This document shows positions 23,476 to 64,000 of a stretch of 64,000 bases of DNA, in pieces. The stretch is from an uncultured delta proteobacterium. GTDB lineage: Bacteria; Myxococcota_A; UBA9160; SZUA-336. Location: NCBI GenBank assembly GCA_963704165.1, contig CAVPHD010000003.1, forward strand, positions 320,001 to 384,000, read 5' to 3'. The position numbers and the translations under genes were made by a program. Each line of letters opens with the position of its first letter. Position 1 is the stretch's first letter. The notes beneath the pieces are model-generated. The model did no database searches. It saw only the letters and a list, made by a program, of their open reading frames with translations, and was not told the DNA's origin.

Positions 23476-23647
23476 GGTCCCGCTCTCCCACTGCTCGACA
23501 CCCGCGATACGAGGCTCTTTTCCTTCGGGTCCGGCCTTTGTGATCTGGAGTACCGATTCGCACGTCGGCTGCGTGTCGGAGCCCGGATTGGAGCCCGAAC
23601 GCGCGCCGGCCGATGAGCAGACCAGGCCGATCCAGGCCGAGGTCCGC

Positions 23648-24481: not shown

Positions 24482-24484
24482 GCG

Positions 24485-43586: not shown

Positions 43587-43644
43587 ACCTGCGCCGCTCG
43601 CTCACGGCGCGATATGCTGCGCTCGCGCAACGCGAGGGGAGCCG

Positions 43645-44454: not shown

Positions 44455-44470
44455 AAACGAGGAGGCTCGC

Positions 44471-45130: not shown

Positions 45131-45142
45131 GACGAGCGCGAC

Positions 45143-46318
45143 ATGCCAAGTCACTTTGCCGACGAGCCGGAGCACATCGGTCTGCTGCGCGAGACGATCC
45201 GCCGCTTCGTCGAAGCCGAGATGCCGGCCGAGAAGCGGCAGCTCTGGGATCGCGAGCACCGCTTCCCGCGCGAGCTCTTCGCAAAGCTCGCGGGCCTCGG
45301 CGTCTGCGGCCTGACGATCGACGAGGCGTACGGCGGTGCCGGCGTCGATCTCGTCGCCGCGGTCGCCGTGATCGAGGAGCTCTGCCGCGGCGGCACCGCC
45401 GCAGCCGGGCCGTTCGTCCATTGCGCGTTCTACGGCGGCATGAACATCAGCGAGAACGGAAGCGAGCAACAGAAACGCGCGCTGCTGCCGAAGCTCGCGC
45501 GCGGCGAGCTGCTCTTCGCGTACGGACTCACCGAGCCCGACGTCGGCGGCGATCTCGCGAGCGTGCGCACCACCGCGCGCGTCTCCGGCGACGGAGAACG
45601 CCTCGTGCTGAACGGCGCGAAGCGCTGGTGCACGGGCGCCGAGTTCGCGGACTTCATCTACTGCCTCGTGCGCACCGGCCCGGAGGACGCGCGCTACCAG
45701 AACCTGTCGCTCGTGCTCGTCGACCCCAAGGGGCCGGGCGTCACGATCTCGCCGATCGAGCACATGAACCTGCGCTACACGCTCTCGTCCGACGTCCGCT
45801 TCGACGACGCACCGGTGCCGATCGCGAACGTCGTCGGTGGCCCGGGCGCGATCGGCCGCGGCTGGAAGATGCTGGTCGGACGCGCGCTCGACGTCGAGAA
45901 GCTCGAGATCAGCGCGATCACGTTCGGCATCGCGCAGGCCGCCGTCGAAGAGGCGTGGGCGTACGCGCAGCAGCGCGTGCAATTCGGCAAGCCGATCGCC
46001 GCGCACCAGGCCGTTCGCCACAAGCTCGTCGAGGTGCGCACCCAGCTCGAGGCCTGCCGGCACATGCTCTACCACGCTGCCTGGCTCGCCCAGCAAGGAC
46101 GGCCGTGCAGCGTCGAGACGTCGATGGCGAAGCTCTTCGTCGCCGACACGGGCGTACAGATCGCCCTCGCGTGCCAGCGCGTGATGGGCGCCTACGGGCT
46201 CTCCGAGGGCCACGACATGGAGCGCAACGTTCGCGATCTGCTCGGGATGCCGATCGTCGGCGGATCGTCCGACATGCAGAAGAACAACCTGGGTCGACGG
46301 TGGGGCCTTCCCGACTGA
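45143..46318 (+). CDS. Acyl-CoA dehydrogenase
   Basis: YGLTEPDVGGDL, NGAKRW, RVQFGKPI..HQ, MGAYG and IVGGSSDMQ. Confidence 0.93.
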   Translation: MPSHFADEPEHIGLLRETIRRFVEAEMPAEKRQLWDREHRFPRELFAKLAGLGVCGLTIDEAYGGAGVDLVAAVAVIEELCRGGTAAAGPFVHCAFYGGMNISENGSEQQKRALLPKLARGELLFAYGLTEPDVGGDLASVRTTARVSGDGERLVLNGAKRWCTGAEFADFIYCLVRTGPEDARYQNLSLVLVDPKGPGVTISPIEHMNLRYTLSSDVRFDDAPVPIANVVGGPGAIGRGWKMLVGRALDVEKLEISAITFGIAQAAVEEAWAYAQQRVQFGKPIAAHQAVRHKLVEVRTQLEACRHMLYHAAWLAQQGRPCSVETSMAKLFVADTGVQIALACQRVMGAYGLSEGHDMERNVRDLLGMPIVGGSSDMQKNNLGRRWGLPD

Positions 46319-48178: not shown

Positions 48179-48344
48179 GGGCCCCCTCCGGCTGGATTCT
48201 CGATCAGACTCCCGGTCAAGAAAATCACCGTCCGAGTCGCTCTCGTATGACGGCGGTCATGTCGCGGACTCCGTGACCGTCGACGAAGCTGGTCGATGGT
48301 CCGGCTCCGCCTGAGTCGGTCTGCCGGGCCGAGGAGGATTCAAC

Positions 48345-49066
48345 ATGGCCGCTCGCAATCGTCTGCACCCGATCGTCGCCAACCGCGCGCTGCGCGCGCT
48401 GCGGGCGAATCCCGACGACACCACGCAGGGAATCGTCGCTATCGCGGCGATGACGGGGAACTCGAACCAGCGTCTCTTCACGCGCTTCAAGAAGTCGCCG
48501 AAGGGCGCGCAGAATCCTGCGCGAGAAGCGCGACCTCTACGGCGTGCTGTGCGACCGGGAGCGGATGCTGGCGATGCCTAAGGGCTCGCTCGGCCGCACG
48601 CTCGTCGAGTGGTTCATCCGCGAGAACATCAGCACGCGAAGGCCTGGCCGGAGCGAGCGAGGCCGCGGCGAAGCAGTTCGGCGGCCGGCCCGATCTCGGC
48701 GAAGAGGCGCGGATCTTCGGGAACCTCGTGCGCAACCTGCACGACGTCTTCCACGTCGTCGCCGGCTACGACCGCGACGTGCGCGGCGAGGTGGCCGTGC
48801 TCGCGTTCACGGCCGCGCAGACGGGCAACACCGGAATCGCGTACCTGGTCCTGCGGTCGATGCTCCGCTCCGGCTGGTTCTCCGAGACCGGCCGGATGAT
48901 CCGGCAGGGTTACCGGCGCGGCCGAAACGCGAAGTGGCTGCTCGACCAGGACTGGGAGGCGCTCCTCGAGCAGCCGATCGACCGGGTTCGCGAGCAGCTC
49001 GGCGTCGGCGAGCCCCCGGTCTACGAGCAGCTCCGCTCGGCCGGCGCGCCCGCACTGAGCGCCTGA
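48345..49066 (+). CDS. Coq4-like protein; frameshifts near 48512 and 48633
   Basis: LAMPKGSLG and LHDVFHVVAGYDRDVRGE (HDxxH...GE); WEALLEQPIDRVREQLGV. Confidence 0.82.
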
Positions 49067-49256: not shown

Positions 49257-50123
49257 ATGCTCGAGACTCGAGCCGAGTTCGAACGGACCACGCGCAAGGT
49301 CGCCACAATTGCCGCCTTGCTTGCAGCCATCACCTTCATCGGAGCGCCCGGCTTGGCGTTTGCCGCCAATCCCTGCGAAGTGACACCGACCGGTGGAACG
49401 GTGGAACTGCCGCCCGAGGGCTGTGAATACCTGAGCCCAGAGGAGGTGCATACGATCATCGCCGGGCTGCCGGCCGGAACGACGATCGTGCTCGCGCCGA
49501 TCCACCGCGACTTCCTCTGTCACGAGGGGGGCGCCGGCGTTCCGCCCGCTCAGTGCAGCGTCGTGGTTCCGCCGGGGTCCTGCGAAGCGCCCGGCGGCGC
49601 GCTGGGTGGCACCGTGGACTGCACGCCGTCCCAGGCCCAGTTTCAGCTGACCGGTACCGGCGAGCTCGCGGGATTCAATCGCGTGCTCTCGATTCCGCTC
49701 GAGATGGAAGTCCACGCCGCACCTCGAACCGTCGGCGCTCCGGTCCAGTCCTTCCCCACCGAGATGATGTCGCTGCAAGGAGAGATCTTCGGTGACCCCG
49801 ACTTCGATCTGCTCAGGATTCGGGCCGGTGGCGTCCACGGCATGCCGAGCCCGGGGCACACGACACTGACGCTGCTGCCGAACGGAAATTTCGCCGTCGA
49901 CAGCTTCTTCGACATCACCTACGAGATCGAGATGGTCGGTGCGCCGGGAGGCCCGCTGGCGGGCATGGCGGGCACGACGACCGGGACGCTGAAGATGGCG
50001 ACCGGCCTCTCGTCCGCGGTTCCCACCGTCCCCAAGCCCGGACTCGGGGTCGTCGGCCTGATTCTGCTCGCCGTCGGAGCGATGTTCATCCCGCGGCTTC
50101 GAAGGAAAATGGCCTCGACGTAG
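49257..50123 (+). CDS. Secreted/surface Cys-containing beta-rich protein with C-terminal IPTL/PEP-CTERM-like sorting tail (paralog 1)
   Basis: Signal peptide, six Cys and VDSFFDITY. Tail AVPTVPKPGLGVVGLILLAVGAMFIPRLRRK has the motif + TM + basic layout. Confidence 0.72.
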   Translation: MLETRAEFERTTRKVATIAALLAAITFIGAPGLAFAANPCEVTPTGGTVELPPEGCEYLSPEEVHTIIAGLPAGTTIVLAPIHRDFLCHEGGAGVPPAQCSVVVPPGSCEAPGGALGGTVDCTPSQAQFQLTGTGELAGFNRVLSIPLEMEVHAAPRTVGAPVQSFPTEMMSLQGEIFGDPDFDLLRIRAGGVHGMPSPGHTTLTLLPNGNFAVDSFFDITYEIEMVGAPGGPLAGMAGTTTGTLKMATGLSSAVPTVPKPGLGVVGLILLAVGAMFIPRLRRKMAST

Positions 50124-50135
50124 GTTTCAGGATCC

Positions 50136-50161
50136 TCTCCCCGGGCGATCGCCCGGGGAGA
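50136..50161. terminator. Perfect 26-bp palindrome just downstream of paralog 1 (hairpin/terminator-like)
   Basis: TCTCCCCGGGCGATCGCCCGGGGAGA equals its own reverse complement. No clear U-tract follows. Confidence 0.5.
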
Positions 50162-50210
50162 CCGGGTCCACCTCGGGCAACGTGACGCGACACCAGTGGG
50201 AGGAGAGGGC

Positions 50211-51026
50211 GTGATGCTGAAGCTCGGAGTTTCGTGGATCTGCGCGGCGATCGTTCTCGTCGCATCGGGCCTGGCCAGCGCCGGCCCCTGTGATGTGACT
50301 CCGAGCGGAGGAACGGTGCAGCTGCCGCCGGCGGGCTGCGAATACCTGAGTCCGGACGAGGTGCACAAGATCATCGACGGGCTGCCGCCCGGCACGACGA
50401 TCGAGCTTGCGCCGATTCACAAGGACTTCATCTGTCGCGAAGGATCGGCCTCGGTGTGCAGCATTCCCCTTCCGCCGGGAACCTGCGAAGCGCCGGGCGG
50501 CACGCTCGGCGGCAACATCGACTGCAGCGAGTCGGTCGCCGAATTCCACCTCACCGGCACGGGCGCACTCGCCGGTTACAGCCGTGTCGTCGCGATTCCG
50601 CTCGTCATGGAAGTCAACACCGCTCCGCGTGCACCTGGCGCTCCGGTGCAGGACTTCGACACCGAGATGATCGCGTTGCAGGGCCAGATCGGCGGCGACC
50701 CGGATTTCGATCTGCTCAGGGTCACCGCCGGCACGGGCTTCGGCATGCCGAGCCCGGGACACACGACGCTGACTCTGCTGCCGGGCGGCAACTACGCGGT
50801 CGACAGCTTCTTCGACATCACCTACCGGATCGACTTCATCGGTGCGCCGGGCGGCGCGCTCGCCGGGATGGCCGGTTCGACGACCGGGACGCTCAAGATG
50901 GCGACCGGGCTCTCGTCCGCCGTCCCGGTCGTTCCCGCGCCGGGACTTGGCGTCGTCGGCCTGATCCTGCTGGCGGTCGGAGCGATGTTCATCCCGCGGC
51001 TCCGGCGGAGAATGGCAAGGGCGTAG
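50211..51026 (+). CDS. Secreted/surface Cys-containing beta-rich protein with C-terminal sorting tail (paralog 2, tandem duplicate)
   Basis: Colinear with paralog 1 (PC.VTP.GGTV.LPP.GCEYLSP; GDPDFDLLR; GMPSPGHTTLTLLP; VDSFFDITY; TTGTLKMATGLSSAVP). AGGAG lies upstream. Confidence 0.72.
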   Translation: MMLKLGVSWICAAIVLVASGLASAGPCDVTPSGGTVQLPPAGCEYLSPDEVHKIIDGLPPGTTIELAPIHKDFICREGSASVCSIPLPPGTCEAPGGTLGGNIDCSESVAEFHLTGTGALAGYSRVVAIPLVMEVNTAPRAPGAPVQDFDTEMIALQGQIGGDPDFDLLRVTAGTGFGMPSPGHTTLTLLPGGNYAVDSFFDITYRIDFIGAPGGALAGMAGSTTGTLKMATGLSSAVPVVPAPGLGVVGLILLAVGAMFIPRLRRRMARA

Positions 51027-51103: not shown

Positions 51104-51229
51104 GCGCTCACGACATCGCCTCAAACTGATTTACTCGCACTTTCGATCGTGGGACACTTTCGGGACATCCCCAGCCGTATGACGGTGACTGGCGACGACG
51201 GCGGTCCTCCATGGCGTCGCTTCGCCGAA

Positions 51230-52228
51230 ATGATGGATTCGGTGTTGGATCAGCTGTCGTCCCTGATTCGGAGTCGCGCGCTCGGGATCGACTCGAGCGA
51301 GGTGGAGTTCGCGAAGCGCGGGTTCGTGCGCCGGGATCCGCTCGCGGTTTCGCGACTCGAGGGTGTCGCTCGGACCTTCGTCCTCGGCTATCGCCTGGCG
51401 CTCGCACAGCCGTCGCCCGATCTCCTCGCGCGGGAGCTCGACCGCGTGCCGTCGGAGCTCCGGGGATTCGCCTATGAAGGCGCGGGAATGGCGCTCGCGT
51501 TGCTCGACCGCCTGACGCCGTGGCGTCGCGATCGCCTTCACGCATTCCTCGCGGGTCCGGCGGATGCGCACGTCTACATGGTGCTGATCGGCGCCGGTTG
51601 GGCTTGGGCGCGACTCCGACGTCGCGTGGACGCGCTCCTGCGGCCGCTCGATCCGGTGCTCGGCTGGCTTGCCCTCGACGGCTACGGATTTCACGAGGGT
51701 TTCTTCCACACCGAACGAACCGTCGAGCGCCACGAACGGCCCGCGCGCCTGCGTGGCTACGCGCTGCGCGCCTTCGACGCCGGACTCGGCCGCTCCCTCT
51801 GGTTCGTCTGCTGCGCAGACCCGGACGCCGTCTCCGCTTGCATCGCGCGCTTCCCGTCCGAGCGCCACGGCGATCTGTGGAGCGGCATCGGTCTGGCCTG
51901 CTCGTACGCGGGTGGCGCGAATGCCGACGCGATCGATGCGCTGCTCGGGCTCGCGAGCGCTCACCGCGGGTCGCTCGCCCAGGGGGCGGCCTTCGCCGCC
52001 GAGGCGCGGCAGCGTGCGGGGATTCCGGCGGAACACACCCGATGCGCGGTCGAACGCATCACCCGCACGTCCGTCGAGCTCGCGGCCAAGATCTGTCACA
52101 GCGAGCTCTCGAAGGTCGAACGGCGCGCGCCGGACGCGAACGGCGACCCGAGGTTCGAAGAGTGGCGGCGCGGGATCCACGAGGCACTCGTGCGCGGCCT
52201 CCACGCTGACGAGGGAGCGCGAGCATGA
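51230..52228 (+). CDS. E3: Enediyne biosynthesis protein E3 (UnbL, DUF1702 family)
   Basis: RGFAYEGAGM, H.YM..IG.GWA.ARL, WLA.DGYGFHEGFF, D.GLGRSLWF, DLWSGIGLA..YAGG and LAQGAAF. First gene of the cassette. Confidence 0.92.
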   Translation: MMDSVLDQLSSLIRSRALGIDSSEVEFAKRGFVRRDPLAVSRLEGVARTFVLGYRLALAQPSPDLLARELDRVPSELRGFAYEGAGMALALLDRLTPWRRDRLHAFLAGPADAHVYMVLIGAGWAWARLRRRVDALLRPLDPVLGWLALDGYGFHEGFFHTERTVERHERPARLRGYALRAFDAGLGRSLWFVCCADPDAVSACIARFPSERHGDLWSGIGLACSYAGGANADAIDALLGLASAHRGSLAQGAAFAAEARQRAGIPAEHTRCAVERITRTSVELAAKICHSELSKVERRAPDANGDPRFEEWRRGIHEALVRGLHADEGARA

Positions 52229-54234
52229 GGGACCAGCCGTCGCCTGCACGTCGCCACGCGGCCCGACTGGTGGCCGTCGCGGTGGTCGTCGCCATCTTCT
52301 CCATCGTCGGCCTGCCCGAGCTCGAGCCGGCCGAGCGCGCGGCGTTGGCATCGCGATTCCGCTTCACGCCCGTAAAGCTCGAGGAGTGGCCCGAGGGCCC
52401 GTACCAGACGCGGCGCGCGGTGAACCCGAGTCTCGAGCGCCACTCCGGCTGGATCTCGGCGGTGGGCGCGGCGGTCGCGCTCGCCGACCTCGACGGCGAC
52501 GGACTGAGCAACGACGTGTGTCACGTCGATCCGCGCACCGATCTCGTCACGTTGTCGCCGGTGCCGGGAGGCGAGCCTCGCTATCCGATCGTCGCGCTCT
52601 CGGTCGGCGGCCTGCCCTACGACCGCGCGACGATGGCGCCGATGGGCTGCGTGCCGGGCGACTTCAACGAGGACGGGCGCACGGACCTGCTCGTGTACTA
52701 CTGGGGCCGCGCGCCGATCGCGTTCCTGAGCCGCGCCGCACCCGGCGATCCGCCGAGCGCAACCGGCTACCTTCCGCTCGAGCTGACCCAGAGCGGCGAG
52801 CGCTGGTTCACCAACGCCGCCACGTTTGCCGACATCGACGGCGACGGTCACGCGGACCTGTTGATCGGAAACTACTTCCAGGATGGCGCGCGCATCCTCG
52901 ACGCGAACGCCACGGCGCCGGACTCGATGCAGCACTCGATGTCGCGCGCCTACAACGGGGGCAAGAACCGCGTCTTCCTGTGGGCCGCGAAGGACTCGGG
53001 CAATGCCCACGAGCCCCGCGTGGCCTACCGCGAGGTGAACGGCGTCTTCGACGAGATCTCACTCCACGCCTGGACGCTCGCGATCGGCGCGGCCGACCTC
53101 GACGGTGACCTGCTCCCCGAGCTCTACTACGCCAACGACTTCGGCCCGGATCGCCTGTACCGAAACGTCTCGGGCCGGGGACGTCCGCGCTTCGCGCTGG
53201 TCGAGGGAACGCGCGGGATCAACACGCCCCGCTCGCGTGTGCTCGGCCGGGACTCCTTCAAGGGGATGGGCGTCGATTTCGCCGACGTCAACGACGACGG
53301 CCGACTCGACTTCTTCGTCAGCAACATCTCCGACGAGTACGCACTGCTCGAGAGTCACTTCCTGTTCGTGAGTCACGGTGACTGGGGCGACGAGGCCGAC
53401 GGCGTCGCGCCGTACGAAGACGATGGCGATGCCCTCGGCGTCGCGCGGAGCAGCTGGGGCTGGGACACGCGCTTCGGCGATTTCGACAACGACGGCGTGC
53501 CCGAGGCGCTGCAGGCGACGGGATTCGCGAAGGGCGAGACCGACCGCTGGCCCGAACTGCAGGAGCTCGCGACCGCGAACGACGAGCTGCTCGCGATCGC
53601 CGGCACCTGGCCACGCTTTCAGGCCGGCGACGACCTCTCGGGCCACGCTCCGAATCCGTTCTACGTGCGCGCCGCCGACGGGCGCTTCCACGACGTGGCC
53701 GCGGAGCTCGGGATCGACCAGCCACAGGTCACGCGCGGCATCGCCACCGCCGACGTCGACGGCGACGGAGACCTCGACTTCGCGATCGCGAACCAGTGGG
53801 AGCCCTCGCTCTTCTACCGGAACGAGCGCGGCGAGGCGGGCTCGGGATTCCTCGGCCTGCACCTGGTGCATCCGGTCGCGGCCGGTGCCAAGGAGGTTCG
53901 GGTGCAACGGGGCCACCCGCACGGAGGCACGTCTCCAGCGATCGGCGCCTCGGCCACCGTGCGGCGCGCGGACGGTCGCGTGCTCGTCGGTCAGGTCGAT
54001 GGCGGAAACGGCCATTCCGGCGTGCGCAGTCCCGAGCTCCACTTCGGCCTCGGAGATGCGGGCCAACACCCAAGCGCCGTCGAGGTCCGCTATCGCGATC
54101 GCTTCGGACGGCCGAATTCGATCGAGCTCATGCTCGAGCCGGGCTGGCACACGGTGGTCTTGCCCGATGCGCCGCCTCCCACGTGGCTGGCCAGCACGTC
54201 GGCATCGGCGCCGCGCGCGGGAGAAACGCGATGA
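52225..54234 (+). CDS. E4: Enediyne biosynthesis protein E4 (UnbV; CRTAC1/ASPIC-like with FG-GAP repeats)
   Basis: WISAVGAAVALADLDGDGL.ND, APMGCVPGDFNEDG, ANDFGPD, DSFKGMG, WPELQELA and VDGGNGHSG.RS. N-terminal TM/signal. Confidence 0.93.
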   Translation: MRDQPSPARRHAARLVAVAVVVAIFSIVGLPELEPAERAALASRFRFTPVKLEEWPEGPYQTRRAVNPSLERHSGWISAVGAAVALADLDGDGLSNDVCHVDPRTDLVTLSPVPGGEPRYPIVALSVGGLPYDRATMAPMGCVPGDFNEDGRTDLLVYYWGRAPIAFLSRAAPGDPPSATGYLPLELTQSGERWFTNAATFADIDGDGHADLLIGNYFQDGARILDANATAPDSMQHSMSRAYNGGKNRVFLWAAKDSGNAHEPRVAYREVNGVFDEISLHAWTLAIGAADLDGDLLPELYYANDFGPDRLYRNVSGRGRPRFALVEGTRGINTPRSRVLGRDSFKGMGVDFADVNDDGRLDFFVSNISDEYALLESHFLFVSHGDWGDEADGVAPYEDDGDALGVARSSWGWDTRFGDFDNDGVPEALQATGFAKGETDRWPELQELATANDELLAIAGTWPRFQAGDDLSGHAPNPFYVRAADGRFHDVAAELGIDQPQVTRGIATADVDGDGDLDFAIANQWEPSLFYRNERGEAGSGFLGLHLVHPVAAGAKEVRVQRGHPHGGTSPAIGASATVRRADGRVLVGQVDGGNGHSGVRSPELHFGLGDAGQHPSAVEVRYRDRFGRPNSIELMLEPGWHTVVLPDAPPPTWLASTSASAPRAGETR

Positions 54235-55235
54235 GCTCGGTCCTCTCGGACACGCCGGGGTTTCATCCCGCGACCCGGCCGGAGCGACCCGCGCCGACGC
54301 CGCTCCGCGCGAGCGACATCGACTGGGCGCAGCAGATCCGACTCGGTGGACTGCGCCGCTTCGCGTTCGCGATCACGCTCTTGAACGTCGTCGGTCACCT
54401 CTACCTCGGCTTCGAGACGTCCTGGCTGCACCCGTTGGCTGCACTCGCCACCGGCTACACGCTCGAGCTCCTGCTCGAGACCATCGACGCGCGGGCCAAG
54501 GGACGCGTGGCGCGTTATCGCATCGGTGGTCTCACGGGGTTCGGTGATTTCCTGCTCTCGGCGCACATCTCGTCGCTCGCCGTGTCGATGCTCCTCTACC
54601 CCAACGAGCACCTCGCCCCGGTGATCTTCGCGACCTCCGTCGCGATCGGGTCGAAAGTGGCGCTGCAGGTCGAGGTGGGCGGGCGCCTGCGGCACTTCAT
54701 GAACCCGTCGAACTTCGGGATCGCCGCCACGCTCTGGTTCTTCCCGTGGGTCGGCATCGCGCCGCCCTACCAGTTCACCGAGAACATCTCGGGGCCGTGG
54801 GACTGGGCGTTTCCGCTGCTGATCATCTTCACCGGCAGCTTCATCAACACACGCTTCACGCGCCGACTCCCGCTTCTTCTCGCCTGGCTCGGCGGCTTCG
54901 CCGCACAGGCGCTGCTGCGGCACTGGCTCTTCGATTCCGCGCTGGTTCCGTCGCTGGCGCCGATGACCGGTCTCGCGTTCCTGCTCTTCACCTTCTACAT
55001 GGTGACCGATCCGCCGACGACGCCGAGCTCGACGCGAAACCAGATCTTCTTCGGGCTCGCGACCGCCGCGACCTACGGCGTGCTGATGGCCTGCCATCTC
55101 GTGTTCGGGCTCTTCTTCTCGCTCGTCATCGTCTGCTTCGCGCGCGGGAGCTGGCATTTCCTCGCGTCGCTGCCGCGCGCGGCTCGGGCGCAGAACGACG
55201 ACTCGGACGCGGTTGCGGGCCCGCGGTCCATCTGA
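54231..55235 (+). CDS. E5: Enediyne biosynthesis membrane protein E5 (UnbU)
   Basis: LRRFA.AIT.LN..GH..LGFE, RHFMNPSNFGI, IAPPYQFTEN and YMVTDP.TTP. ATGA overlap with E4. Confidence 0.92.
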   Translation: MSSVLSDTPGFHPATRPERPAPTPLRASDIDWAQQIRLGGLRRFAFAITLLNVVGHLYLGFETSWLHPLAALATGYTLELLLETIDARAKGRVARYRIGGLTGFGDFLLSAHISSLAVSMLLYPNEHLAPVIFATSVAIGSKVALQVEVGGRLRHFMNPSNFGIAATLWFFPWVGIAPPYQFTENISGPWDWAFPLLIIFTGSFINTRFTRRLPLLLAWLGGFAAQALLRHWLFDSALVPSLAPMTGLAFLLFTFYMVTDPPTTPSSTRNQIFFGLATAATYGVLMACHLVFGLFFSLVIVCFARGSWHFLASLPRAARAQNDDSDAVAGPRSI

Positions 55236-55238
55236 AGC

Positions 55239-58200
55239 ATGCGCGAGCCCATCGCCATCGTTGGGCTCGCCTGCTCTTATCCCGACGCGAACTCCCCCGC
55301 TGAGCTCTTCGAGAACGTGCTCGCGGGTCGCCGTGCGTTCCGGCGGATTCCAGAAGAGCGGCTCTCACTGGCCGACTATGGCTCGACGGACGCCGGCGAC
55401 GTCGACCGCACCTACGTCACGCAGGCCGCGACGATCGAGGGCTACGAGTTCGACCGGGTGCGCTTCAAGATCGTCGGCAGCACCTATCGATCGGCGGATC
55501 TGACCCACTGGCTCGCGCTCGACGTGGCCGACCGCGCACTCACCGACGCCGGCTTCGCAGACGGCGACGGACTTCCCCGGGAGCGAACCGGCGTGATCCT
55601 GGGCAACACGCTGACGGGGGAGTTCTCGCGCGCGCAGGCGATGCGGCTGCGCTGGCCGTACGTGGAGCGTGTGCTCTCGGACACCCTCGGCGACCTCCTG
55701 CCCGACGCGTCCGCGCGCGCAAGCTGGCTCGCCGAGCTCGAGTCCCGCTACAAGGCGCCCTTCGAGGCCTTTGGTGACGAGAGCCTGGCGGGCGGACTCG
55801 CAAACACGATCGCGGGCCGCATCTGCAACTTCTTCGATCTGAAAGGCGGCGGATTCACCGTCGATGGCGCGTGCTCCTCGTCGCTGCTCGCCGTCGCCAA
55901 CGCGTGCGCGGCGCTCGCCGCGCGCGATCTCGACGTGGCGATCACGGGCGGCGTCGATCTCAGCCTCGACCCGTTCGAGCTGGTCGGCTTCGCGCGTGCG
56001 GGCGCGCTCGCTCGCGACGAGATGCGCGTGTACGACCGCCGCGCACAGGGCTTCTGGCCGGGCGAAGGCTGCGGTCTCCTGGTGCTGATGCGCGAACCCG
56101 ACGCGATCGAGCGGGGCCTGCGCGTCTACGCGCGCATCCGCGGCTGGGGCATCGCATCCGACGGGGCCGGCGGCATCTCGCGTCCCGAAGCGGCGGGGCA
56201 AGTGCTCGCGCTGCGCCGCGCGTACGCTAGCGCCGGCTTCGGACCCGAGACGGTCGCCTGCTTCGAGGGCCACGGAACCGGAACGGAAATCGGCGATGCG
56301 ACCGAGCTCGAGGCCCTGACGCAGCTGCTTCGCGAGAACGGCGCGGGTCGCGACGCGCCGGCTTCGATCGGATCGATCAAGGCGAACATCGGACACACGA
56401 AGGCCGCGTCGGGTGCGGCCGGACTGATCAAGGCCACGCTCGCGCTTCACCGGCAGTTGCTGCCTCCGATGCCCGGCTGCGAATCGCCCCACGCGCTGGT
56501 CGGAAGCGGCGCGCTGCTTCGCGTGCAGACGCTGGCTTCGCCCTGGCCACAGGACCGGCCGCTGCGTGCAGCCGTCAGCTCGATGGGCTTTGGCGGCATC
56601 AACACCCACGTCGTGCTCGACTCGCAGGCGAGTCGCCGCCGCCCCGCGCTTTCGCGTCGCGAGCGCGCGCTCCAGACGACGAAGCAGGACACCGAGCTGT
56701 GTTTGTTCGCCGAGGACTCGGCGCCGCAGCTGCGAGCTCGGGTCCAGGCGCTGCTTCCGCTCTCGCGCCGCATCTCGCAGGCCGAGCTCTCCGACCTCGC
56801 CGCGAGCTTGGCCGCAGAGGTCGCCGCCCGGCCGCCGGGCCCCCGCGCGCGAGCGGCCGTCGTGGCCTCGCGACCCGACGAGCTCACGACGCAGCTCGAG
56901 CGTCTGGTCGCGGCGATCGATCGCGCGACACAGAACGGCGACGCGATCTCGATCGAGCCGGAGCGCGGGGTCTTCTTCGGCGCTCGATCCGGAGATCCCC
57001 ACATCGGCTTGCTCTTTCCCGGCCAGGGCGCGCCCGTGCATCCGGACCTCGGCGCCCTGGCGCCGTGGCTCGACGGCGATCCGCTCGGGTCGCTGCACGC
57101 CGCGGCCATCGCTCCCGCGCACGAGGCCGGGCTCTTCGCCGGCTCCACCCCGATCGAGCGCGGAGAGATCGTCGACACCTCCCTCGCGCAGCCGGCGATC
57201 GTCGCGGCCTCCGTCGCGAGCGCGCTCATGCTCGAAGCACTCGGGGTCGTGGCCGAGGTCGCGGTGGGGCACAGCCTCGGCGAGATCGCCGCGCTCGCGT
57301 GGAGCGGATCGCTAACGCCCGGCGCTTCGGTTCGGCTCGCCGCCTCGCGCGGGCGGATCATGGCGGAGCTCGGTCACGACGACGGCGCGATGGCGAGCCT
57401 GGCCGTCGATCCAGACACGGCGCAGCGTCTGATCGCGACCGAGCCCTGCGTCATCGCCGCCCGGAACGGTCCCATTCGTACGGTCATCGCCGGCGATACC
57501 GCGGCCGTCTCGCGCGTGATCGAACGCGCGGCCGCGCAGCGCATCGCGGCGACTCGCCTCGCCGTGTCACACGCCTTCCACTCGCCTCACGTCGCGGACT
57601 GCGCGCCGGCTCTCGCGAAGGCGCTCTCTTCCGTTCCGTTCGAGGCGCCGCAACGGCGCGTCGTCTCCACGCGCACGGGCCTGCCGCTCGGCACCGACGC
57701 CGACCTCCGACTGCACCTCGTCCGGCAGGTGACCGAGCCGGTTCTCTTCTCGGACGCGGTGACGCGAGCGGCCGTCGGCCTCGACCTGTGGATCGAGGCG
57801 GGGCCGGGGCGAATGCTCGGCGCGCTCGCTTCCGATCTCGGCGACACACCGGTGATCCCGCTCGACAGCGGCGGCCCGACGTTTCGGGGTCTGCTCGCGG
57901 CCGTCGGCGCCGCGTTCGCTCTCGGCGCTCCGGTCGACACCGCGCGGCTCTTCGCCCACCGCGTCACCAAGCCCTTCGATCCCGAGCGGCCGCTCTCGTT
58001 CTTCTCGAACCCGTGCTGTGTGGATCGTGATCCGTCGACCGTGCCGGACGCCGCGCCAGGCCGCGCGCTTCCGGATGCAAACGATCGCAGCGTCGGGCAG
58101 AGCACGCTCGACGTGCTGCGCGGGCTCGTCGCTTCTCGCTGCGAGCTTCCCGTTTCCGCGATCGGCCCCGACGATCGCTTCCTGAGCGACCTGCACCTGA

Positions 58201-61084
58201 CCTCGATCGCGGTGAGCGAGCTCGCGTCCCGGGCCGCTCGCGAGCTGTCGCGTCCGCCGCTCGTCGCGCCGAACGAGTTCGCCGACGCCACCGTGGCCGA
58301 GCTCGCGCGCGCGATCGAGTCCGAGGAGCGAGAGCTCGTGATGGGATCTTTCGTCGCGGGTGTGGACGCGTGGGTGCGCGGCTTCGAGGTCGTCTCGGTC
58401 GCGCGCGCGCGGCCGCGCGACTCGGCGATCGGCGGGCGACGCGAGGGCCCATGGTCGTGGCGGACCTTCCTCGAACCCGGCGACGAGCTCGGCGAGGCGA
58501 TCGCGCACGCGCTGCGGAGCTTTGCGGGCAGCGACGGCGTGCTCGTCCACCTGCCGACGACGCCGGCGTTTCTCGCCCAGCTTCCCCGGCTGCTCGAAGC
58601 CGCGCGAGCCGCGAACGAGAGCCTCGACGCGCGCCACTTCGTGCTCGTCCATCACGGCGACGCGAGCGCGACGATCGCCCGCACGCTCCACCAGGAGGCG
58701 CGCAACCTCGCCAGCCGGGTGATCGAGCTGCCCCCGTTCGACATCGCCGACGCTGCGGCGTGGGTGCTCGCCGAGGTGCGCGCGGGGTCCGCCTGGAGCG
58801 AGGCTCGCTACGACGGCGACGGAAACCGCTTCGAGCGGCGCTTGCGTCCCCTCCCGCTCGGAGCGGCCGCAGAGACCGGACTTCCCGTCGGCGCGAACGA
58901 CGTGCTGCTCGTGAGTGGCGGCGGCAAGGGCATCGCGGCCGAATGCGCTCTTGCGCTCGCGCGCGAGAGCGGCTGCGCGCTCGGGCTGATCGGTCGCTCG
59001 CGACCGGAGAGCGACGGACGCGCTGCGGGAGAACCTCGAGCGCTTCCGGGCCGCCGGCGTCCGCGTCGCCTACGCAGCCGGCCGACGTCTGCGATGCGCG
59101 CGAGGTCGGCATCGCGTTGCGCGAGATCGAGACGCGACTCGGGCCCGTGCGCGGACTCGTGCACGCAGCCGGGCTCAATCGACCCGACGTGCTCGCGCTT
59201 CTCGAGATCGGCGATTTCCGCGACACGCTCGCACCGAAGCTCGACGGGCTCGAGAACCTGCTCTCGCAGATCGACACGCGCCGGCTGCGCTGCCTGGTGG
59301 GATTCGGCTCGATCATCGCCGAGCTCGGGCTGCCCGGCGAAGCCCACTACGCGCTCGCAAACGAAATGCTGACGCGGCGAATCGAGGACTTCGCATCCGC
59401 CCACCCGCACACCCGCTGCCTCTCGCTCGCCTGGTCGATCTGGTCCGGGGTGGGAATGGGGGAGAGGCTCGGCCGGGTCGAAACCCTGTCGGCCCGGAAC
59501 ATCTCGGCGATCACGCCCGACCAAGGGGTCGCCTGGCTCGCGAAGCTGCTGCGTCGGAGCGATGCCCCGGTGCGGACGGTGGTGTCGGGTCGGTTCGGAC
59601 ACCCGCCGACGCTGACACACGTCGAGCAGACGCTTCCGGCGTTGCGCTTCCTCGAACGCGTTCGCGAACACGTTCCGCGCGTCGAGCTCGTCGCCGACGC
59701 GGAGCTCTCGCTCGAGTCCGATCCCTATCTCGCCGACCACGTCTACCGAGGAGAGTCGATCGTGCCGGGCGTGATCGGGCTCGAGGCCTTCGCGCAGATC
59801 GCCGGGGCGCTCGCGAATCACGCGCGGCTGCCGACGTTCGAGGACGTCCGCTTCGAGCAGCCGATCGTGCTACCGCCCGAGGGAAAGCGAACCGTGCGCG
59901 TCGCGGCGCTGGCGTCGGCGGAACCGGACGACGACCGGATCCAGCTTCGGCTCCGCACGGACGGCAACGCGTACCAGGTCCAGCACATCTCGGCCGAGGT
60001 CGGCTTCGTCGATCGAGTCGAGATGATTCCGACCGCGCTCGCCCCCGCGCCGAAGCACGACGCTCCCGTCGTCCTCGAAGACGGAGCGACGTTGTACGGC
60101 GACCTCTTCTTCCACCGCGGCCGGTTCGCGCGCGTGATTCGCTATCGCGCGCTCCACAGCGACGGCTGCGTGGCCGAGATCGCCGGCCGGGACGAGCCGT
60201 TCTTCGGCGCGTTCCAGCCGGGACGACTCTGCCTGGGGGATCCGGGCGCGCGCGACGCGGCGATCCACGCGATCCAGGCCTGTGTACCCGATCGGGATCT
60301 CCTGCCGATCGGCGTGCGGAGAATCGTCGCCGGCCGGCTCGAGGGGCACGCGCTTCTGCGACTGCGCGCGGTCGAGCGCGGCCGGCACGGGGGTCGCTAC
60401 GAGTACGACCTCGAGATCTCGACTCCGGAAGGTGAGGTGCTCGAACGCTGGGAAGGCCTCGCGCTGCAGGAGGTCGCGGGCGCCGCGCGTCGCGAGATCT
60501 GGCCGGCAGCGTTGCTCGCGCCGCGACTCGAGGAGTACGCGAAGGCGCTCTGGCCGGATGCGAGGGTGCGCGCAGCCTTCCTGCCCGACTCGGCGGCCGC
60601 GACGAGCGAGCTTGCGCTCCATGCAGCCCGCGGCGTGCCCGGTCGGCTCCGCCATCGGCTCGACGGACGGCCGGAGATCGATGGAGCGGGCGCGGTCAGC
60701 GTCAGTCACTCGGCCGGTCACACACTCGCGGTCTCCGCCGATGTCGATCTCGCCTGCGACGTCGAGGTCGTGAGCGAGCGCAGCGCGGAAACCTGGCGGG
60801 ACATGCTCGGCTTGGAAAGCCATGCGGCGGCACGCCAGCTCGCGGATCGAAGCGAGGAACCCTTCGACGTCAGCGCGACGCGACTCTGGGGGGCGAGCGA
60901 GTGCGTGCGCAAGCTCGGACTTCCGCGCGAAACACCGATCACGCTCTCCACACCGCTCGGGAATGGCGCGCTGCGCCTCCACGTCGGGCGCACGGAGATG
61001 CTCAGCTTCTCGGCTCGGCTGGCGGGCGCGGATGCGGCACGGATCTTCAGTCTTCTGGTTCGGAGCGGCGATGCGAGCGTTTGA
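55239..61084 (+). CDS. pksE: Enediyne iterative type I polyketide synthase (KS-AT-ACP-KR-DH-PPTase); two +1 frameshifts at about 59016 and 59080 in the KR (probable sequencing errors)
   Basis: KS: DGACSSS, EGHGTGT, NIGHTKAA, GEFSRA..MRLRWPYV. AT: GHSLGE, HAFHS. ACP: SDLHLTSI. KR: SGGGKGI, GEAHYALAN. DH: YLADH...PGV.GLEA. PPTase: SVSH...ACDVE...W...ECVRK. Removing two G bases gives about 1947 aa. Confidence 0.95.
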
Positions 61085-61496
61085 ATACCGGCACGTCGTC
61101 GGCTTCGAGGAGACCAACGTGGTCGGAAACGTCTACTACGCCAACCACGTGCGCTGGCAGGGGCGGGTCCGCGAGCTCTTCCTGCGCGAGCGCGCGCCCG
61201 AGATCCTCGACCTGATCCGAGAGGGCCTCGCGCTCGTCACGCTGCGCGTGAGCTGCGAGTACTACCGCGAGCTCGCCGCCTTCGACGAGATCTGCATCCG
61301 AATGCGATTGGCCGATCTATCGCCCCATCGCATGAGCCTGCTCTTCGAGTACTGGCGGGTCGGAGAGAGCGGCGAGGAGCTGGCCGCGCGCGGCGAGCAG
61401 GATCTCGCGTGCATGTGGCGGCGCAACGGCAAGACCGAGCCCGAGCCGTGGCCGGATTCCCTGCGCGAAGCGCTGCGACCCTATGCGGAGTCGTAG
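61071..61496 (+). CDS. E10: Enediyne hot-dog-fold thioesterase E10
   Basis: MRAFEYRHVVGFEETNVVGNVYYANHVRWQGR.RELFL. Overlaps the pksE stop. Confidence 0.94.
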   Translation: MRAFEYRHVVGFEETNVVGNVYYANHVRWQGRVRELFLRERAPEILDLIREGLALVTLRVSCEYYRELAAFDEICIRMRLADLSPHRMSLLFEYWRVGESGEELAARGEQDLACMWRRNGKTEPEPWPDSLREALRPYAES

Positions 61497-61505
61497 CCCG
61501 ACTCC

Positions 61506-64000
61506 ATGACGTGGATCTCGCAGAGGGCGCTCGACCGGCCGCGCGCGACGCTGATCGTCTGCGCCGTGCTCACGCTGGCGCTCGGCATCGGCGCGCTGCG
61601 GCTGGAGCTGCGCACCGACGGTCACGCACTCACGCCGGAGGGGCACCCGGTCGTGATGCGCGATGCCGAGGACCGCGTTCGCTTTCGCGACGCGCGCAAG
61701 GCGATCCTCGTGGCGCTCGCGCGCTCTCCGGAGCAGACGCTCGCCACGCCGCACGGCTTCCGCTTTCTCCGCGAGCTCCACGTTCGACTCGAGAGACTCG
61801 ACGTGCTCCGGTCGAGCGGGCTCGTCTCGCTCGCGGGCTTGCCCCGACTCACACGCGACGGCGGAACCGTCTCGGTCGGAACCTATCTCGACGCCATTCC
61901 AGAAGCGGACGACGGCTTCGAGGCGTGGCTCGCGACGCTCCGGTCACGCCCCCTCGTCGATGGCCTGCTGCTCGCGCGCGACGGACAGAGCGCCCTCTTC
62001 GTGCTGCCGCTCTCGGAAGCCACGAGCGCGGCGGAGGCGATCGGGAGCCTCGAGGCCTTCGCGGCCGGAGCTTCGACCGACGAATTCGAGCTGCTGCTCG
62101 GCGGCCCGCTCGTCGCCGAGACGAACCTGGGCGAGCAGGTGCTCTCCGACCTCGCGCTGCTGGTTCCCGGGATGGTGGTCGTGATCGCGGTCCTGCTGTT
62201 CTCGATGCTCGGCAGTCCCGGTGGCGTCCTGATTCCGCTGATCGAGACGGCGGTCGTGCTGATCGCGACGTTCGGCGCGATGGGCTGGGCCGGCGCACCA
62301 ATCGCGCTGGTCTCGACGATCCTCCCGGTCGTGCTGATGGCGACCTGCATCACCGACGAGGTGTACCTGCTCGAGCGCTTCGGCGCCCAGACCGGAACGG
62401 GCTCGCCGCGCGCGCGCGTCGAGGCGTCGCTGCGCGAGGTCGGGCGCCCGATCGTGCTGACGTCCCTCACCACCGCACTCGGCTTCCTCTCGTTCACCAG
62501 CGCGTCGATCGGACCGCTGCGCGATTTCGGGCTCTTCGCCACCTTCGGAATCCTGCTCGCGATGCTGCTGAGCTTCACGCTGATCCCCGCCTTGATCGTG
62601 CTGCTGCCCGTGCGGATCTTCGAGCCCGCCTCGTGGCGGACCGGAACGATCGGACAGGCTCGACTCGGGGCGTTCGCGGCCGGGCGCCCGGTCGTCTGCT
62701 TCGCGCTCGCGGTCGCGGCGCTCGCGCTCACGGTCCCGGGCATCCGCTCACTTCGAGTCAGTGATTCGTGGGTCGAGAACTTCGATCCCGAGTCCGAGCT
62801 GGTACGGGCCGATCGGCAAATCAATCGCTCGTTCTGGGGAAGCTATCGGCTCGACGTCGTGCTCGAGGCGGAGCCCGGCCGCTTCCACGACCCGTCGGGT
62901 GTCGCGCTCGTCGAGCGCGTCTGCGCGGTTTCCGAGAACGCGCCCCACGTCGGAGGCTGCGAGAGCCCGTACGTAGCCCTCGAGGAGCTGGCCCGAGTGA
63001 TGGATGCCGCAACACCTCTCTCCGCGCTGACGGCGGATCGGCTCTGGGATCTGTTCACGTTGTCGGAGCTTTCCGAGGGCCGCGCGCTCGACCCTTCGAT
63101 CAGCGCCTCGGCCGACGCCGCGCGCGTCCGGCTCTACGTGCGAAGCCCCGACTACGGGATGGCCCGCGAGCTGATGGACCATCTGGAAGGGGAGCTCGAG
63201 CCGATCCTCTCCGACACGGGCGTGCGCCATCACCTCGGCGGTGAGCTCGCCGTCACCTCGGCGCTCGTCGAGTCCATCGTCTACGACCAGCTGCGCTCGA
63301 TCGGCTGGGCGCTCTTCACCATCGCGCTGCTTCTGCTCGCATTCACCCGCCGCTTCCGGGCGTTGCTCGCGGTGGTTCCCGTCAGCGCGGCGAGCCTCGG
63401 GCTCTTCGGCGTCATGGGACTCGCCGGGATCACCCTTGGTGTCGCGACGAGCATGTTCGCGAGTCTGGCGGTCGGCGTCGGCGTCGATTTCGGCATTCAC
63501 TTCCTCCACCGCTATGACCGCGAGCGGCTCGCGGGGAGTGACTTCGCAGCCGCGATCCGAGCGACCTTCGACGTCACGGGCCGCGCGCTGCTCTGGAACG
63601 CGATCGTGCTGGTCGCCGGCTTCAGCGTGCTGATCGCATCGAGCTTGAAGCCGAATCACAGCCTCGGACTGCTTCTCGTCGGCGCCACCCTGGCGTGCTA
63701 TGGGGCGACGCTGCTCGGGCTTCCGCTGCTCTTGCGGCTCGGTGCCCGCGGGGCTGCGAAGAAGGCCGCGGGGCTCGTCGCGTGCCTGTGGATCGCCTTC
63801 GCACCGACTCGAGCAGCGAACGCCGCGGATCTGCCATGTGCCGGCCCCCCCGATCCCGAAGCCACCGCGTTGATGGCGCGTCTCGAGCAGACGCGCCGGG
63901 GTCAGGCGCGCATCGCGCGCATGCAGATCGAGACGATCTACCCGAAAGGCCACCGGCTCTCGGCGAGCTTCGCCGGCAAGATCGACGCGAAGACACTCTG
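61506..64000 (+). CDS. MMPL/RND-family transporter with probable C-terminal LolA-like fusion; partial (runs off window, absent from ORF track)
   Basis: Manual translation from ATG 61506, sampled at several points, stays in frame: MTWISQRALDRPRATLIV..., LLLGGPLVAETNLG, SLTTALGFLSF, VGVGVDFGIHF. After the last TM it continues as ...ATALMARLEQTRRGQARIARMQIETIY. Confidence 0.85.
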   Translation, partial: MTWISQRALDRPRATLIVCAVLTLALGIGALRLELRTDGHALTPEGHPVVMRDAEDRVRFRDARKAILVALARSPEQTLATPHGFRFLRELHVRLERLDVLRSSGLVSLAGLPRLTRDGGTVSVGTYLDAIPEADDGFEAWLATLRSRPLVDGLLLARDGQSALFVLPLSEATSAAEAIGSLEAFAAGASTDEFELLLGGPLVAETNLGEQVLSDLALLVPGMVVVIAVLLFSMLGSPGGVLIPLIETAVVLIATFGAMGWAGAPIALVSTILPVVLMATCITDEVYLLERFGAQTGTGSPRARVEASLREVGRPIVLTSLTTALGFLSFTSASIGPLRDFGLFATFGILLAMLLSFTLIPALIVLLPVRIFEPASWRTGTIGQARLGAFAAGRPVVCFALAVAALALTVPGIRSLRVSDSWVENFDPESELVRADRQINRSFWGSYRLDVVLEAEPGRFHDPSGVALVERVCAVSENAPHVGGCESPYVALEELARVMDAATPLSALTADRLWDLFTLSELSEGRALDPSISASADAARVRLYVRSPDYGMARELMDHLEGELEPILSDTGVRHHLGGELAVTSALVESIVYDQLRSIGWALFTIALLLLAFTRRFRALLAVVPVSAASLGLFGVMGLAGITLGVATSMFASLAVGVGVDFGIHFLHRYDRERLAGSDFAAAIRATFDVTGRALLWNAIVLVAGFSVLIASSLKPNHSLGLLLVGATLACYGATLLGLPLLLRLGARGAAKKAAGLVACLWIAFAPTRAANAADLPCAGPPDPEATALMARLEQTRRGQARIARMQIETIYPKGHRLSASFAGKIDAKTL

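Follow-up and report, generated by a model that had tools for sequence, protein, structure and literature searches.

An MMPL transporter fused to a LolA-like domain directly downstream of an enediyne-type cassette in an uncultured delta proteobacterium

The stretch of DNA described here, referred to as the window, comprises 64,000 nucleotides of contig CAVPHD010000003.1 from the assembly GCA_963704165.1 of an uncultured delta proteobacterium (G000:C3:320001-384000 on the scale of the source contig). At its end begins a gene in which an RND/MMPL transporter core is followed, in the same reading frame, by a signal-peptide-like segment and a LolA-like domain. A complete enediyne cassette is located immediately upstream, with overlapping or 9-nt junctions. 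Coordinates refer to the window unless a prefix is given; the extended contig L002 covers C3:381001-399000, and a position in L002 equals the window position minus 61000. The fused gene and its parts are as follows.

61506..64703 (L002:506-3703; G000:C3:381506-384703), + strand: fused MMPL-LolA_like gene of 1065 codons (open reading frame (ORF), translation, Pfam)
61506..63740, + strand: RND/MMPL core, residues 1-745, with 12 predicted helices and two periplasmic loops (Pfam, hydropathy, conserved charged residues)
63741..63824, + strand: junction, residues 746-773, a 13th helix or internal signal peptide (sequence, layout of homologues)
63825..64700 (in the window to 64000), + strand: LolA-like tail, residues 774-1065 (Pfam, AlphaFold2 model, Foldseek, VIA, cysteine covariation)

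The TAG stop codon of the upstream thioesterase gene is at 61494-61496 and the ATG of the transporter follows 9 nt later at 61506, a start codon that is backed by the N-termini of homologues. Within the window, 831 codons are open from this ATG up to the last base; another 703 bases of the gene lie beyond the window edge, and the complete protein of 1065 residues has no internal stop. The original prediction had placed a hidden gene here, with two MMPL repeats leading through a signal-peptide-like stretch into a LolA-like domain, and the extended contig bears this out, since Pfam recognizes MMPL in two stretches, the signal-peptide-like segment follows, and LolA_like (PF17131) completes the same single ORF. 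Both peptide strings that had been cited are present in the translation, the motifs foretold for the part downstream of the window (WLYLRAFDRFSRLEG and PGSALSYEDAREY) are found in the extended protein, and no stop separates the transporter from the LolA-like part.

The core starts with the first transmembrane helix (TM1), followed by a loop of ~175 residues (~35-210), TM2-6, TM7, a second loop of ~180 residues (~415-595) and TM8-12, with TM12 ending near residue 745; this layout is derived from Kyte-Doolittle hydropathy only. The match to MMPL (PF03176) has an E value of 1.6e-31 and 110 bits (cutoff 20.5), and the Patched SSD and Sterol-sensing models of Pfam also score above their cutoffs in the core. 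In RND pumps, the proton relay is located in TM4 and TM10. The core carries D284/E285 in TM4 and D661/H665 in TM10, each invariant in 20 of 20 fused homologues, and from these acidic and histidine residues we infer that transport is probably proton-driven. The scores stay below the cutoff of every curated NCBIfam model, with 140.8 bits versus 351.9 for HAE3 (TIGR00921), 84.2 versus 751.85 for HpnN (TIGR03480), 47.9 versus 1100 for NF052374, and 16.6 versus 1400 for NF052608. The models of the HAE3/MMPL/HpnN type nevertheless reach 140.8, 93.2, and 84.2 bits, whereas those of multidrug HAE1 pumps reach only 17-19 bits. Solved RND proteins in the PDB are matched only at E values of 1e-5 to 3e-4.

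The LolA_like match in the tail extends over residues 841-1020 (64026-64565) and profile positions 2-177 of 184, scoring 49.6 bits (cutoff 30) in the whole protein and 53 bits when only the tail is taken. The AlphaFold2 model of the tail (mean predicted local distance difference test (pLDDT) 94.6, predicted template modeling score (pTM) 0.91) has the predicted structure of a LolA-superfamily open β-barrel with an N-terminal helix. Its best Foldseek match has an E value of 5e-17. In the VIA comparison, the best matches are 4z48, a protein of the DUF1329 family (Z 25.5, 233 residues aligned, root-mean-square deviation (rmsd) 2.4), and LolA3 from P. gingivalis (9tp6; Z 25.5, 231 aligned, rmsd 2.0), followed by 3bk5 (Z 24.4) and NE2245 (3buu, Z 20.1), whereas canonical LolA/LolB chains reach a Z of only 10-12.8. 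As modeled, the tail is of the DUF1329/LolA3 type and lacks a close likeness to canonical LolA or LolB. It ends with a helical hairpin (residues ~1029-1065), and the last ~35 residues lie outside the structurally aligned range. The likeness of the tail to the LolA-like protein at 23648, pointed out in the original prediction, is supported by 25% identity over 180 residues (E 1e-6), but BLAST aligns the β-core and not the N-terminal helix that had been compared.

The junction between core and tail comprises, in this order, the basic stretch RLGARGAAKK, the hydrophobic core GLVACLWIAFAP, and an AxA-like motif, ANA followed by AD. Its AxA-like end reads RLGARGAAKKAAGLVACLWIAFAPTRAANA followed by AD, and the n-h-c layout is that of a Sec signal peptide. 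This layout is kept in 20 of 20 aligned fused homologues, and five stand-alone homologues of the tail (P0137, P0146, P0149, P0152, and P0156) have a methionine and a signal peptide at the equivalent place. The LolA-like domain begins ~10 residues after the 13th hydrophobic segment. Just past the AxA-like site lies Cys778 (63837-63839), with Cys932 (64299-64301) as its covarying partner: 17 of the 20 fused proteins have the pair and 3 lack it entirely, 4 stand-alone proteins have the pair and 6 lack it entirely, and no row in which both columns are covered has one of them alone. Such covariation suggests a disulfide bond, which would in turn require the oxidising periplasm as the location of the tail. 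The positive-inside junction, the signal-peptide equivalence with the stand-alone homologues, and the covarying cysteine pair together argue for a tail that is probably periplasmic. Cys778 was also considered as a lipoprotein cysteine and rejected in that role, as the preceding DLPC (ELPC, APDC, DPRC, etc., in homologues) forms no lipobox by eye, with the exception of AAGC in P0036. Due to the short tether, the domain would be able to shuttle only if a signal peptidase cleaved the chain at the predicted AxA-like site.

Conservation of the fusion was followed in proteins as well as in genome loci. A protein homology search gave 237 matches at E <= 0.001, the best 120 of which were examined for domains. 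PF03176 and PF17131 occur together in 53 of these 120 (query included), and 48 of the 53 proteins are 1036-1200 residues long. The fused homologues, which are named 'MMPL family transporter' or 'outer membrane lipoprotein-sorting protein' in the databases, come from Myxococcota or 'Deltaproteobacteria' metagenome-assembled genomes. A search with the tail only, among 1.84 billion representatives, also gave 237 matches at E <= 0.001; among the best 150, 21 have at least 1000 residues with the match at the C terminus, 16 probable fragments have 400-900 residues, and shorter proteins make up the remainder. Conservation of the tail extends through the 20 members aligned. Fusions of this type are thus already common in sequence databases. 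The 79 genome loci (labeled L) are divided into close fused (18), close unfused (15), distant fused (20), and distant unfused (26) ones, and in all 18 close fused loci the tail is in the same frame as the MMPL core.

A tree of the MMPL core, made from 62 rows without the 18 truncated ones (quick IQ-TREE, LG+G4), needs at least four changes of the fused state. In this tree, the window protein is found in a clade of 14 rows, all fused (SH-like approximate likelihood ratio test (SH-aLRT) 99), and the sister of that clade comprises 11 unfused rows. In six distant loci, the two genes are split in the order MMPL, then LolA_like, with DUF1302 next in five of them. The repeated fusion or fission within a fixed gene order indicates that MMPL and LolA_like work together. 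A genome of the same genus, G007, contains an orthologue with 70% identity, and the surrounding 13.5 kb are collinear, with 77% identity at the DNA level. The ratios of nonsynonymous to synonymous substitution rates (dN/dS) between the window and G007, 0.37 in the core and 0.30 in the tail, show that the fusion is under purifying selection.

The genes immediately upstream of the fused gene form the cassette listed below.

51218..52228, + strand: DUF1702 protein, which we take to be E3/UnbL, in the E3 position; start approximate (Pfam PF08012 at 1.9e-106; frame conserved against G007)
52225..54234, + strand: E4/UnbV-like secreted FG-GAP / UnbV_ASPIC protein (Pfam)
54249..55235, + strand: E5/UnbU-like polytopic membrane protein, weakly RnfD/NqrB-like; start position approximate (Pfam, Atlas)
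55239..61084, + strand: PksE-type iterative polyketide synthase (PKS; KS-AT-...-KR-DH), in two frames (Pfam; DynE8 AT at 2.7e-57; comparison with the PKS of locus L018)
61071..61496, + strand: E10-class enediyne thioesterase of the hotdog fold (Pfam 4HBT_2; PDB matches)

The best PDB relatives of the thioesterase are SgcE10 (3.3e-46), CalE7 (3.6e-45), and DynE7, and the end of the PKS gene and its ATG share an overlap of 14 nt; the gene preceding the transporter was therefore rightly called an enediyne thioesterase from the start. The E5/UnbU-like protein matches PF03116 at 2.8e-5, below the cutoff, and the Atlas cluster closest to it, with a score of 0.98, is named 'putative enediyne biosynthesis protein UnbU'. 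According to the available part of PMC5181780, the E3/E4/E5/E/E10 cassette is common to all enediyne clusters, and all five genes are clustered here in the order given there. No tailoring genes typical of mature enediynes were found among the neighbors scanned. In heterologous systems, PKSE and its thioesterase are described as yielding a linear conjugated heptaene (PMC8725005, available part). No paper joining PKSE, enediyne, and MMPL was found in a search that left most subscription journals outside.

The PKS is interrupted by a frame break between 59015 and 59081, seen against the intact PKS of 1997 residues in L018. In G007, the PKS is in frame at that site and is broken near KS residue 216 (L174, G007:C32, about 10169-10175). 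The dN/dS values of 0.15-0.36 on both sides of the break argue against a long-standing decay of the PKS and suggest that the breaks may be recent events or assembly errors.

How tightly the transporter is linked to the cassette varies among its relatives. G007, the one of 11 other genomes of the genus with an orthologue of the fused gene, keeps the order PksE, thioesterase, fused gene. The same order, starting with the FG-GAP gene, is present in L018, the only adjacent case among the 18 close fused loci, and in L006 the cassette is ~11 kb away on the same strand, on the contig shared with L017 (JAFDEK010000067.1). The original prediction had described the exporter as dedicated to the PksE product; the window, G007, L018 (adjacent), and L006 (~11 kb) speak for it, but they represent a minority when set against the 18 close fused loci. 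Unfused MMPL genes, in turn, flank PksE and the thioesterase in L017, L033, L039, and L042. A survey of metagenomes used the thioesterase as its anchor and compared the best 80 of 414 loci. Downstream DNA extends over 3 kb or more in 29 of the 80; an unfused MMPL gene in convergent orientation (28-30% identity) is present in 15 of these 29 loci and absent from 14. A survey of pksE loci for MMPL-LolA neighbors had been suggested in the original prediction; MMPL is such a neighbor in 15 of 29, but the fused tail is found in 0 of the 80 loci.

A stand-alone LolA-like gene had been expected in the gap of 0.9-1.3 kb between the thioesterase and the MMPL gene of the metagenome loci, but in 6 of 6 loci tested the ORF there encodes a regulator of the AraC family. 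The arrangement in soil metagenomes (L084-L161, e.g., L111, L131, and L116) comprises an FG-GAP/UnbV-like gene, an RnfD/UnbU-like gene, PksE, an E10-type thioesterase, the AraC regulator, and the convergent unfused MMPL gene. These loci suggest that enediyne-type cassettes with RND exporters are common outside actinomycetes. An MMPL-type exporter is a recurrent companion of the cassette in diderm-type genomes, with the fused form as a rare solution.

Directly upstream of the cassette are two tandem genes of an uncharacterised secreted family, here called SEC, which is also found at other loci.

49257-50123 and 50214-51026, + strand: two tandem SEC genes (translations, homologues, model)
L004:2362-3912, L006:97-3427, L008:8180-9985, L020:8139-9827, L039:7769-9577, and L042:13113-14294: SEC genes elsewhere

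The two SEC proteins of the window have a signal peptide, a Cys-rich segment, a predicted eight-stranded β-barrel, and a C-terminal anchor made up of VPxPG, a helix, and RLRR[KR]. The module of ~240 residues, with conserved cysteines, occurs in one to three tandem copies per gene, and the C-terminal anchors vary among members; some members end with a hydrophobic helix followed by arginines, which looks PEP-CTERM-like by eye only. All 1099 homologues at E <= 1e-5 are named 'hypothetical', and no match was found among Pfam and NCBIfam models, including those of sorting signals. The SEC model (pLDDT 80) is an eight-stranded barrel with no Foldseek match in the PDB at E <= 0.001. VIA lists OmpW (Z 9.1, 162 residues aligned), OprF-N (8.1), PagL (8.0), AlkL (7.0), and DynF (7.0), all near background. 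DynF is the eight-stranded barrel of the dynemicin cluster that, in the accessible text of PMC8725005, binds palmitate and is proposed to bind the PKSE heptaene.

By ORF clustering and tblastn, 7 of the 18 close loci have SEC adjoining the fused gene; in six it is on the same strand and directly upstream, in L009 on the opposite strand and downstream. SEC also adjoins unfused MMPL genes in six further loci. It directly abuts the transporter in L004, L006, L007, L008, and L020, and the five cassette genes intervene in the window and in G007. PksE, the thioesterase, an MMPL gene, and SEC are found together in the window and G007, on the contig of L006/L017, in L039, and in L042, in different orders. 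SEC is thus a candidate partner or acceptor of the transporter, a lead and not a finding. In JAFDEK010000067.1, the fused gene follows two SEC genes, and the cassette, ~11 kb further on, is accompanied by another MMPL gene, which is unfused and convergent to the thioesterase; as both lie on one contig, fused and unfused exporters can coexist around one cassette. The ORF at 48296-49063, directly upstream of the SEC genes of the window, has a Coq4-family Pfam match at 5e-11. Past the fused gene, L002:5953-6759 (66953-67759 on the window scale) has a C-type lectin match at 1.2e-5 and a weak PEP-CTERM motif at 7e-4, just below the cutoff, which hints at an exosortase-type sorting system in the genome.

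Downstream, the fused gene is followed by an APH-family gene in convergent orientation. A terminator-like site was looked for and none was found. A downstream DUF1302-like barrel had been anticipated in the original prediction, but the convergent gene occupies that place, and DUF1302 is absent from the 14 kb downstream as well as from the cassette upstream. DUF1302 follows the fused gene in none of the 18 close loci versus 18 of the 20 distant fused ones, the contigs of the other two ending too early. The genome has three DUF1302 genes elsewhere, the nearest of which, at 24482-25966 (+), belongs to a second lipid-export-looking module of the window (18289-25966). This module also contains a minus-strand ORF with MMPL and FeeM (N-acyl amino acid synthase) matches (18289-20622), an asparagine synthase gene (21484-23811, minus), and the gene of the stand-alone LolA_like/DUF1329 protein mentioned above (23390-24478, +, 170 bits; aligned as 23648-24478). 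Matches to PF17131 are found at no fewer than 12 separate places in the genome. One is the LolA_like gene L002:9923-10411, ~6 kb past the fused gene and just before an ADP-forming acyl-CoA synthetase-like gene (L002:10475-12607).

The fused protein can be read as a 12-helix RND/MMPL transporter with a 13th, signal-peptide-like helix and a DUF1329/LolA3-type domain, which would export the hydrophobic product of the cassette into its own periplasm-facing carrier domain; we give this reading an even chance of being right. The pump would be powered by the proton gradient, and the 13th segment would take the chain back across the membrane, placing the LolA-like domain in the periplasm. Its cargo would be lipid-like, either the polyene made by PKSE and the thioesterase or a lipid built from that polyene, and the periplasmic loops of the pump would pass it into the LolA-like cavity. 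From there, two courses can be envisaged. The carrier may stay tethered beside the pump as a fixed acceptor; starting ~10 residues past the hydrophobic segment and apparently pinned by the disulfide, a tethered domain could not reach the outer membrane. Alternatively, signal peptidase I may free the carrier at the conserved AxA-like site, allowing it to shuttle to the outer membrane, where the SEC barrels at 49257-51026 or one of the three DUF1302 gene products of the genome would be candidate partners. That the fused protein exports specifically the PksE product and delivers it to the outer membrane is plausible from the local operon structure and from the arrangement in a minority of relatives. 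We can speculate further that diderms run the enediyne cassette as an envelope pathway, in which the RND pump pulls out the polyene, signal peptidase frees the LolA-like carrier, and delivery is to SEC barrels that serve as outer-membrane conduit or apoprotein in place of DUF1302, although this extended scheme is doubtful.

Several observations weigh against export of the cassette product by the fused protein. Cleavage, topology, ligand, and transport direction are all putative, and a shuttle role of the LolA-like domain is not established. With NCBIfam scores below the cutoffs and only remote similarity to PDB structures, the substrate class is not transferable by homology. No outer-membrane acceptor is encoded in the operon. 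As described above, the PKS is broken at different sites in the window and in G007, and the cassette may be non-functional in either assembly. The remaining close fused loci have no PksE in their flanks, several of which are short, and the fused tail does not appear in any of the 80 thioesterase-anchored metagenome loci. It is SEC, and not PksE, that is the more frequent neighbor of the close fused genes (7 of 18), and the general cargo of the subfamily may be unrelated to PksE. Finally, TOL_3187, a distant fused relative, is induced on a long-chain alkane, and the available part of PMC6304351 discusses it in connection with alkane transport and not as an exporter of a secondary metabolite.

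These neighbor frequencies are the basis of a different explanation, in which the fused protein has a general envelope function and moves an endogenous lipid or other hydrophobic cargo together with SEC, its place after the cassette being a local rearrangement with no relationship to the cargo. The loci in which SEC stands beside the fused gene, and the six more in which it stands beside unfused MMPL genes, favor such a function, as does the direct contact of SEC and transporter in five loci, where the window and G007 have the cassette sitting between both; most of the close fused loci, moreover, are without PksE. Contigs bearing several of the SEC homologues match in length those bearing fused-transporter homologues. 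However, SEC is also missing from 11 of the 18 close loci, the occurrence of PksE, thioesterase, MMPL gene, and SEC in four independent arrangements points to a functional link and not to chance, and the junctions of PKS, thioesterase, and transporter are overlapping or 9 nt long. We regard a cargo unconnected with the cassette as possible but unlikely.

Self-protection by efflux is another explanation that draws on the cassette itself. The RND core would expel a cytotoxic enediyne-type product and the LolA-like domain would sequester it in the periplasm, with no carrier function, a role similar to that of an apoprotein. The apoproteins of enediynes are sequestering proteins. In its favor, the unit ends with the transporter gene, a hydrophobic cavity is available in the LolA-like fold, and the complete set of E3/E4/E5/E/E10 genes is the signature of enediyne biosynthesis in the accessible part of PMC5181780. 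The missing tailoring genes of mature enediynes among the scanned neighbors speak against a cytotoxic product, however, and the core is closer to the lipid-moving HAE3/MMPL/HpnN models than to HAE1. Efflux for self-protection is improbable on this evidence.

A further explanation has the fused protein take part in taking up or handling hydrophobic substrates from outside the cell, for example long-chain alkanes or fatty esters, a role discussed for distant fused or split RND/DUF1329/DUF1302 systems. TOL_3187, composed of two MMPL repeats and a LolA-like domain and followed by a porin-like gene, is up 42-fold on n-C28 (PMC6304351, available part), and mutants in DUF1302/DUF1329 genes are reported to show fitness defects on fatty esters and Tween 20 in the part of 10.1101/2020.07.04.188060 at hand. 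The window contains genes of an acyl-CoA dehydrogenase and an enoyl-CoA hydratase at 43561-46315. Those systems, however, adjoin a DUF1302 barrel, which is found in none of the 18 loci of the present subfamily, only 25-30% identity is shared with the distant fused group, the groups are apart on the tree, and the immediate operon partners of the fused gene are biosynthetic. An uptake role is thus very unlikely here. That the fusion is an artefact of assembly or annotation, with two genes joined by a lost stop or an indel, has practically no chance of being true and is excluded by homologues, synteny with G007, and dN/dS: although the assembly has at least one nearby frame break, in the PKS, the same continuous architecture is found in 48 full-length database proteins, in 18 close and 20 distant loci, and in G007, 20 of 20 homologues keep the junction, and the tail is under in-frame purifying selection.

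How very hydrophobic molecules get from the inner to the outer membrane of Gram-negative bacteria has been solved for lipoproteins and lipopolysaccharide, but not for many lipids and pigments. The independent fusion and fission that recur on the tree, with no fewer than four changes, represent strong comparative evidence that orphan LolA-like proteins take their cargo directly from RND pumps, and a testable function is thereby offered for LolA3-like proteins. With its complete enediyne cassette wired to envelope transport outside actinomycetes, the locus suggests that the cassette product may be an envelope polyene lipid in such organisms. The conserved signal-peptidase-like site raises the question of whether a pump and its periplasmic shuttle are made as one precursor and then cut. 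If the carrier were indeed released to SEC, the locus would encode a self-contained three-part lipid route in which pump and shuttle are made as one precursor.

Comparison of the fused protein with known systems reveals partial likenesses for each of its parts. The core resembles transporters of the HpnN/MmpL3 type (the HAE3/MMPL branch) in its 12-helix RND architecture, in having two small domains on the periplasmic side, and in the charged residues of TM4 and TM10, and these are the best NCBIfam models; the scores, however, are far below the cutoffs, the PDB matches are remote, and no LolA-like domain is fused to those transporters. The tail shares with LolA3 (9tp6), 3bk5, and NE2245 (3buu) the larger LolA-superfamily fold with extra strands over 218-231 residues (Z 25.5, 24.4, and 20.1, respectively), whereas those proteins are stand-alone and secreted, with 15-18% identity, and the tail adds a C-terminal helix beyond model residue 259. 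LolA3-type proteins are described as having no assigned function, and LolA3 does not bind LolB; an Arg in the β2-β3 loop of LolA and an exposed Leu in the β3-β4 loop of LolB are named as features (PMC13103446, accessible part).

The closest functional analogue, likened by description, is found in aryl-polyene clusters, where ApeL (LolA-like), ApeM (RND), and ApeN (LolB-like) are proposed to place a polyene lipid in the outer membrane (PMC8253772, in part), as well as in flexirubin loci, which include LolA2/LolB2 (PMC11885536, in part). In both cases an RND pump and a LolA-like protein are encoded within a polyene cluster, and the same logic is proposed here for the PKSE polyene. Those sets, in contrast, comprise separate genes with a LolB-like DUF3261 partner and use chemistry similar to type II PKS or fatty acid synthase, whereas the PKSE here is an iterative type I enzyme. 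No Pfam match to DUF3261 was found among the scanned neighbor ORFs, which were picked by a crude filter on the GC content of third codon positions (GC3) that could miss such a gene.

RND (COG1033), DUF1329, and DUF1302 proteins, with or without a BNR protein, form a cofitness module in Shewanella, Kangiella, and Pseudomonas, for which export of a cell-wall or envelope constituent was proposed (10.1101/072470, available part) and an alternative role as esterase suggested (10.1101/2020.07.04.188060, available part). An RND pump and a LolA/LolB-like DUF1329 protein are common to this module and the fused protein, the best structure for the tail being that of a DUF1329-family protein (4z48, Z 25.5). 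The module differs in having separate genes and an outer-membrane DUF1302 protein, whereas the present gene joins pump and carrier and has no barrel gene beside it.

The same order in one polypeptide, two MMPL repeats followed by a LolA-like domain, is known from TOL_3187 of Thalassolituus oleivorans MIL-1 (PMC6304351, as far as its accessible text describes the protein) and from a group of Pseudomonadota, group B (L047-L080), in which TOL_3187 is placed from its description alone. Group B differs from the present subfamily in its core (25-30% identity), in its separate part of the MMPL tree, and in having DUF1302 next in 18 of 20 loci, versus 0 of 18 here. What is new in the present fusion, compared with those known, is that it has no adjacent barrel, that a secreted barrel family co-occurs with it, and that it adjoins a complete enediyne cassette in an organism outside actinomycetes.

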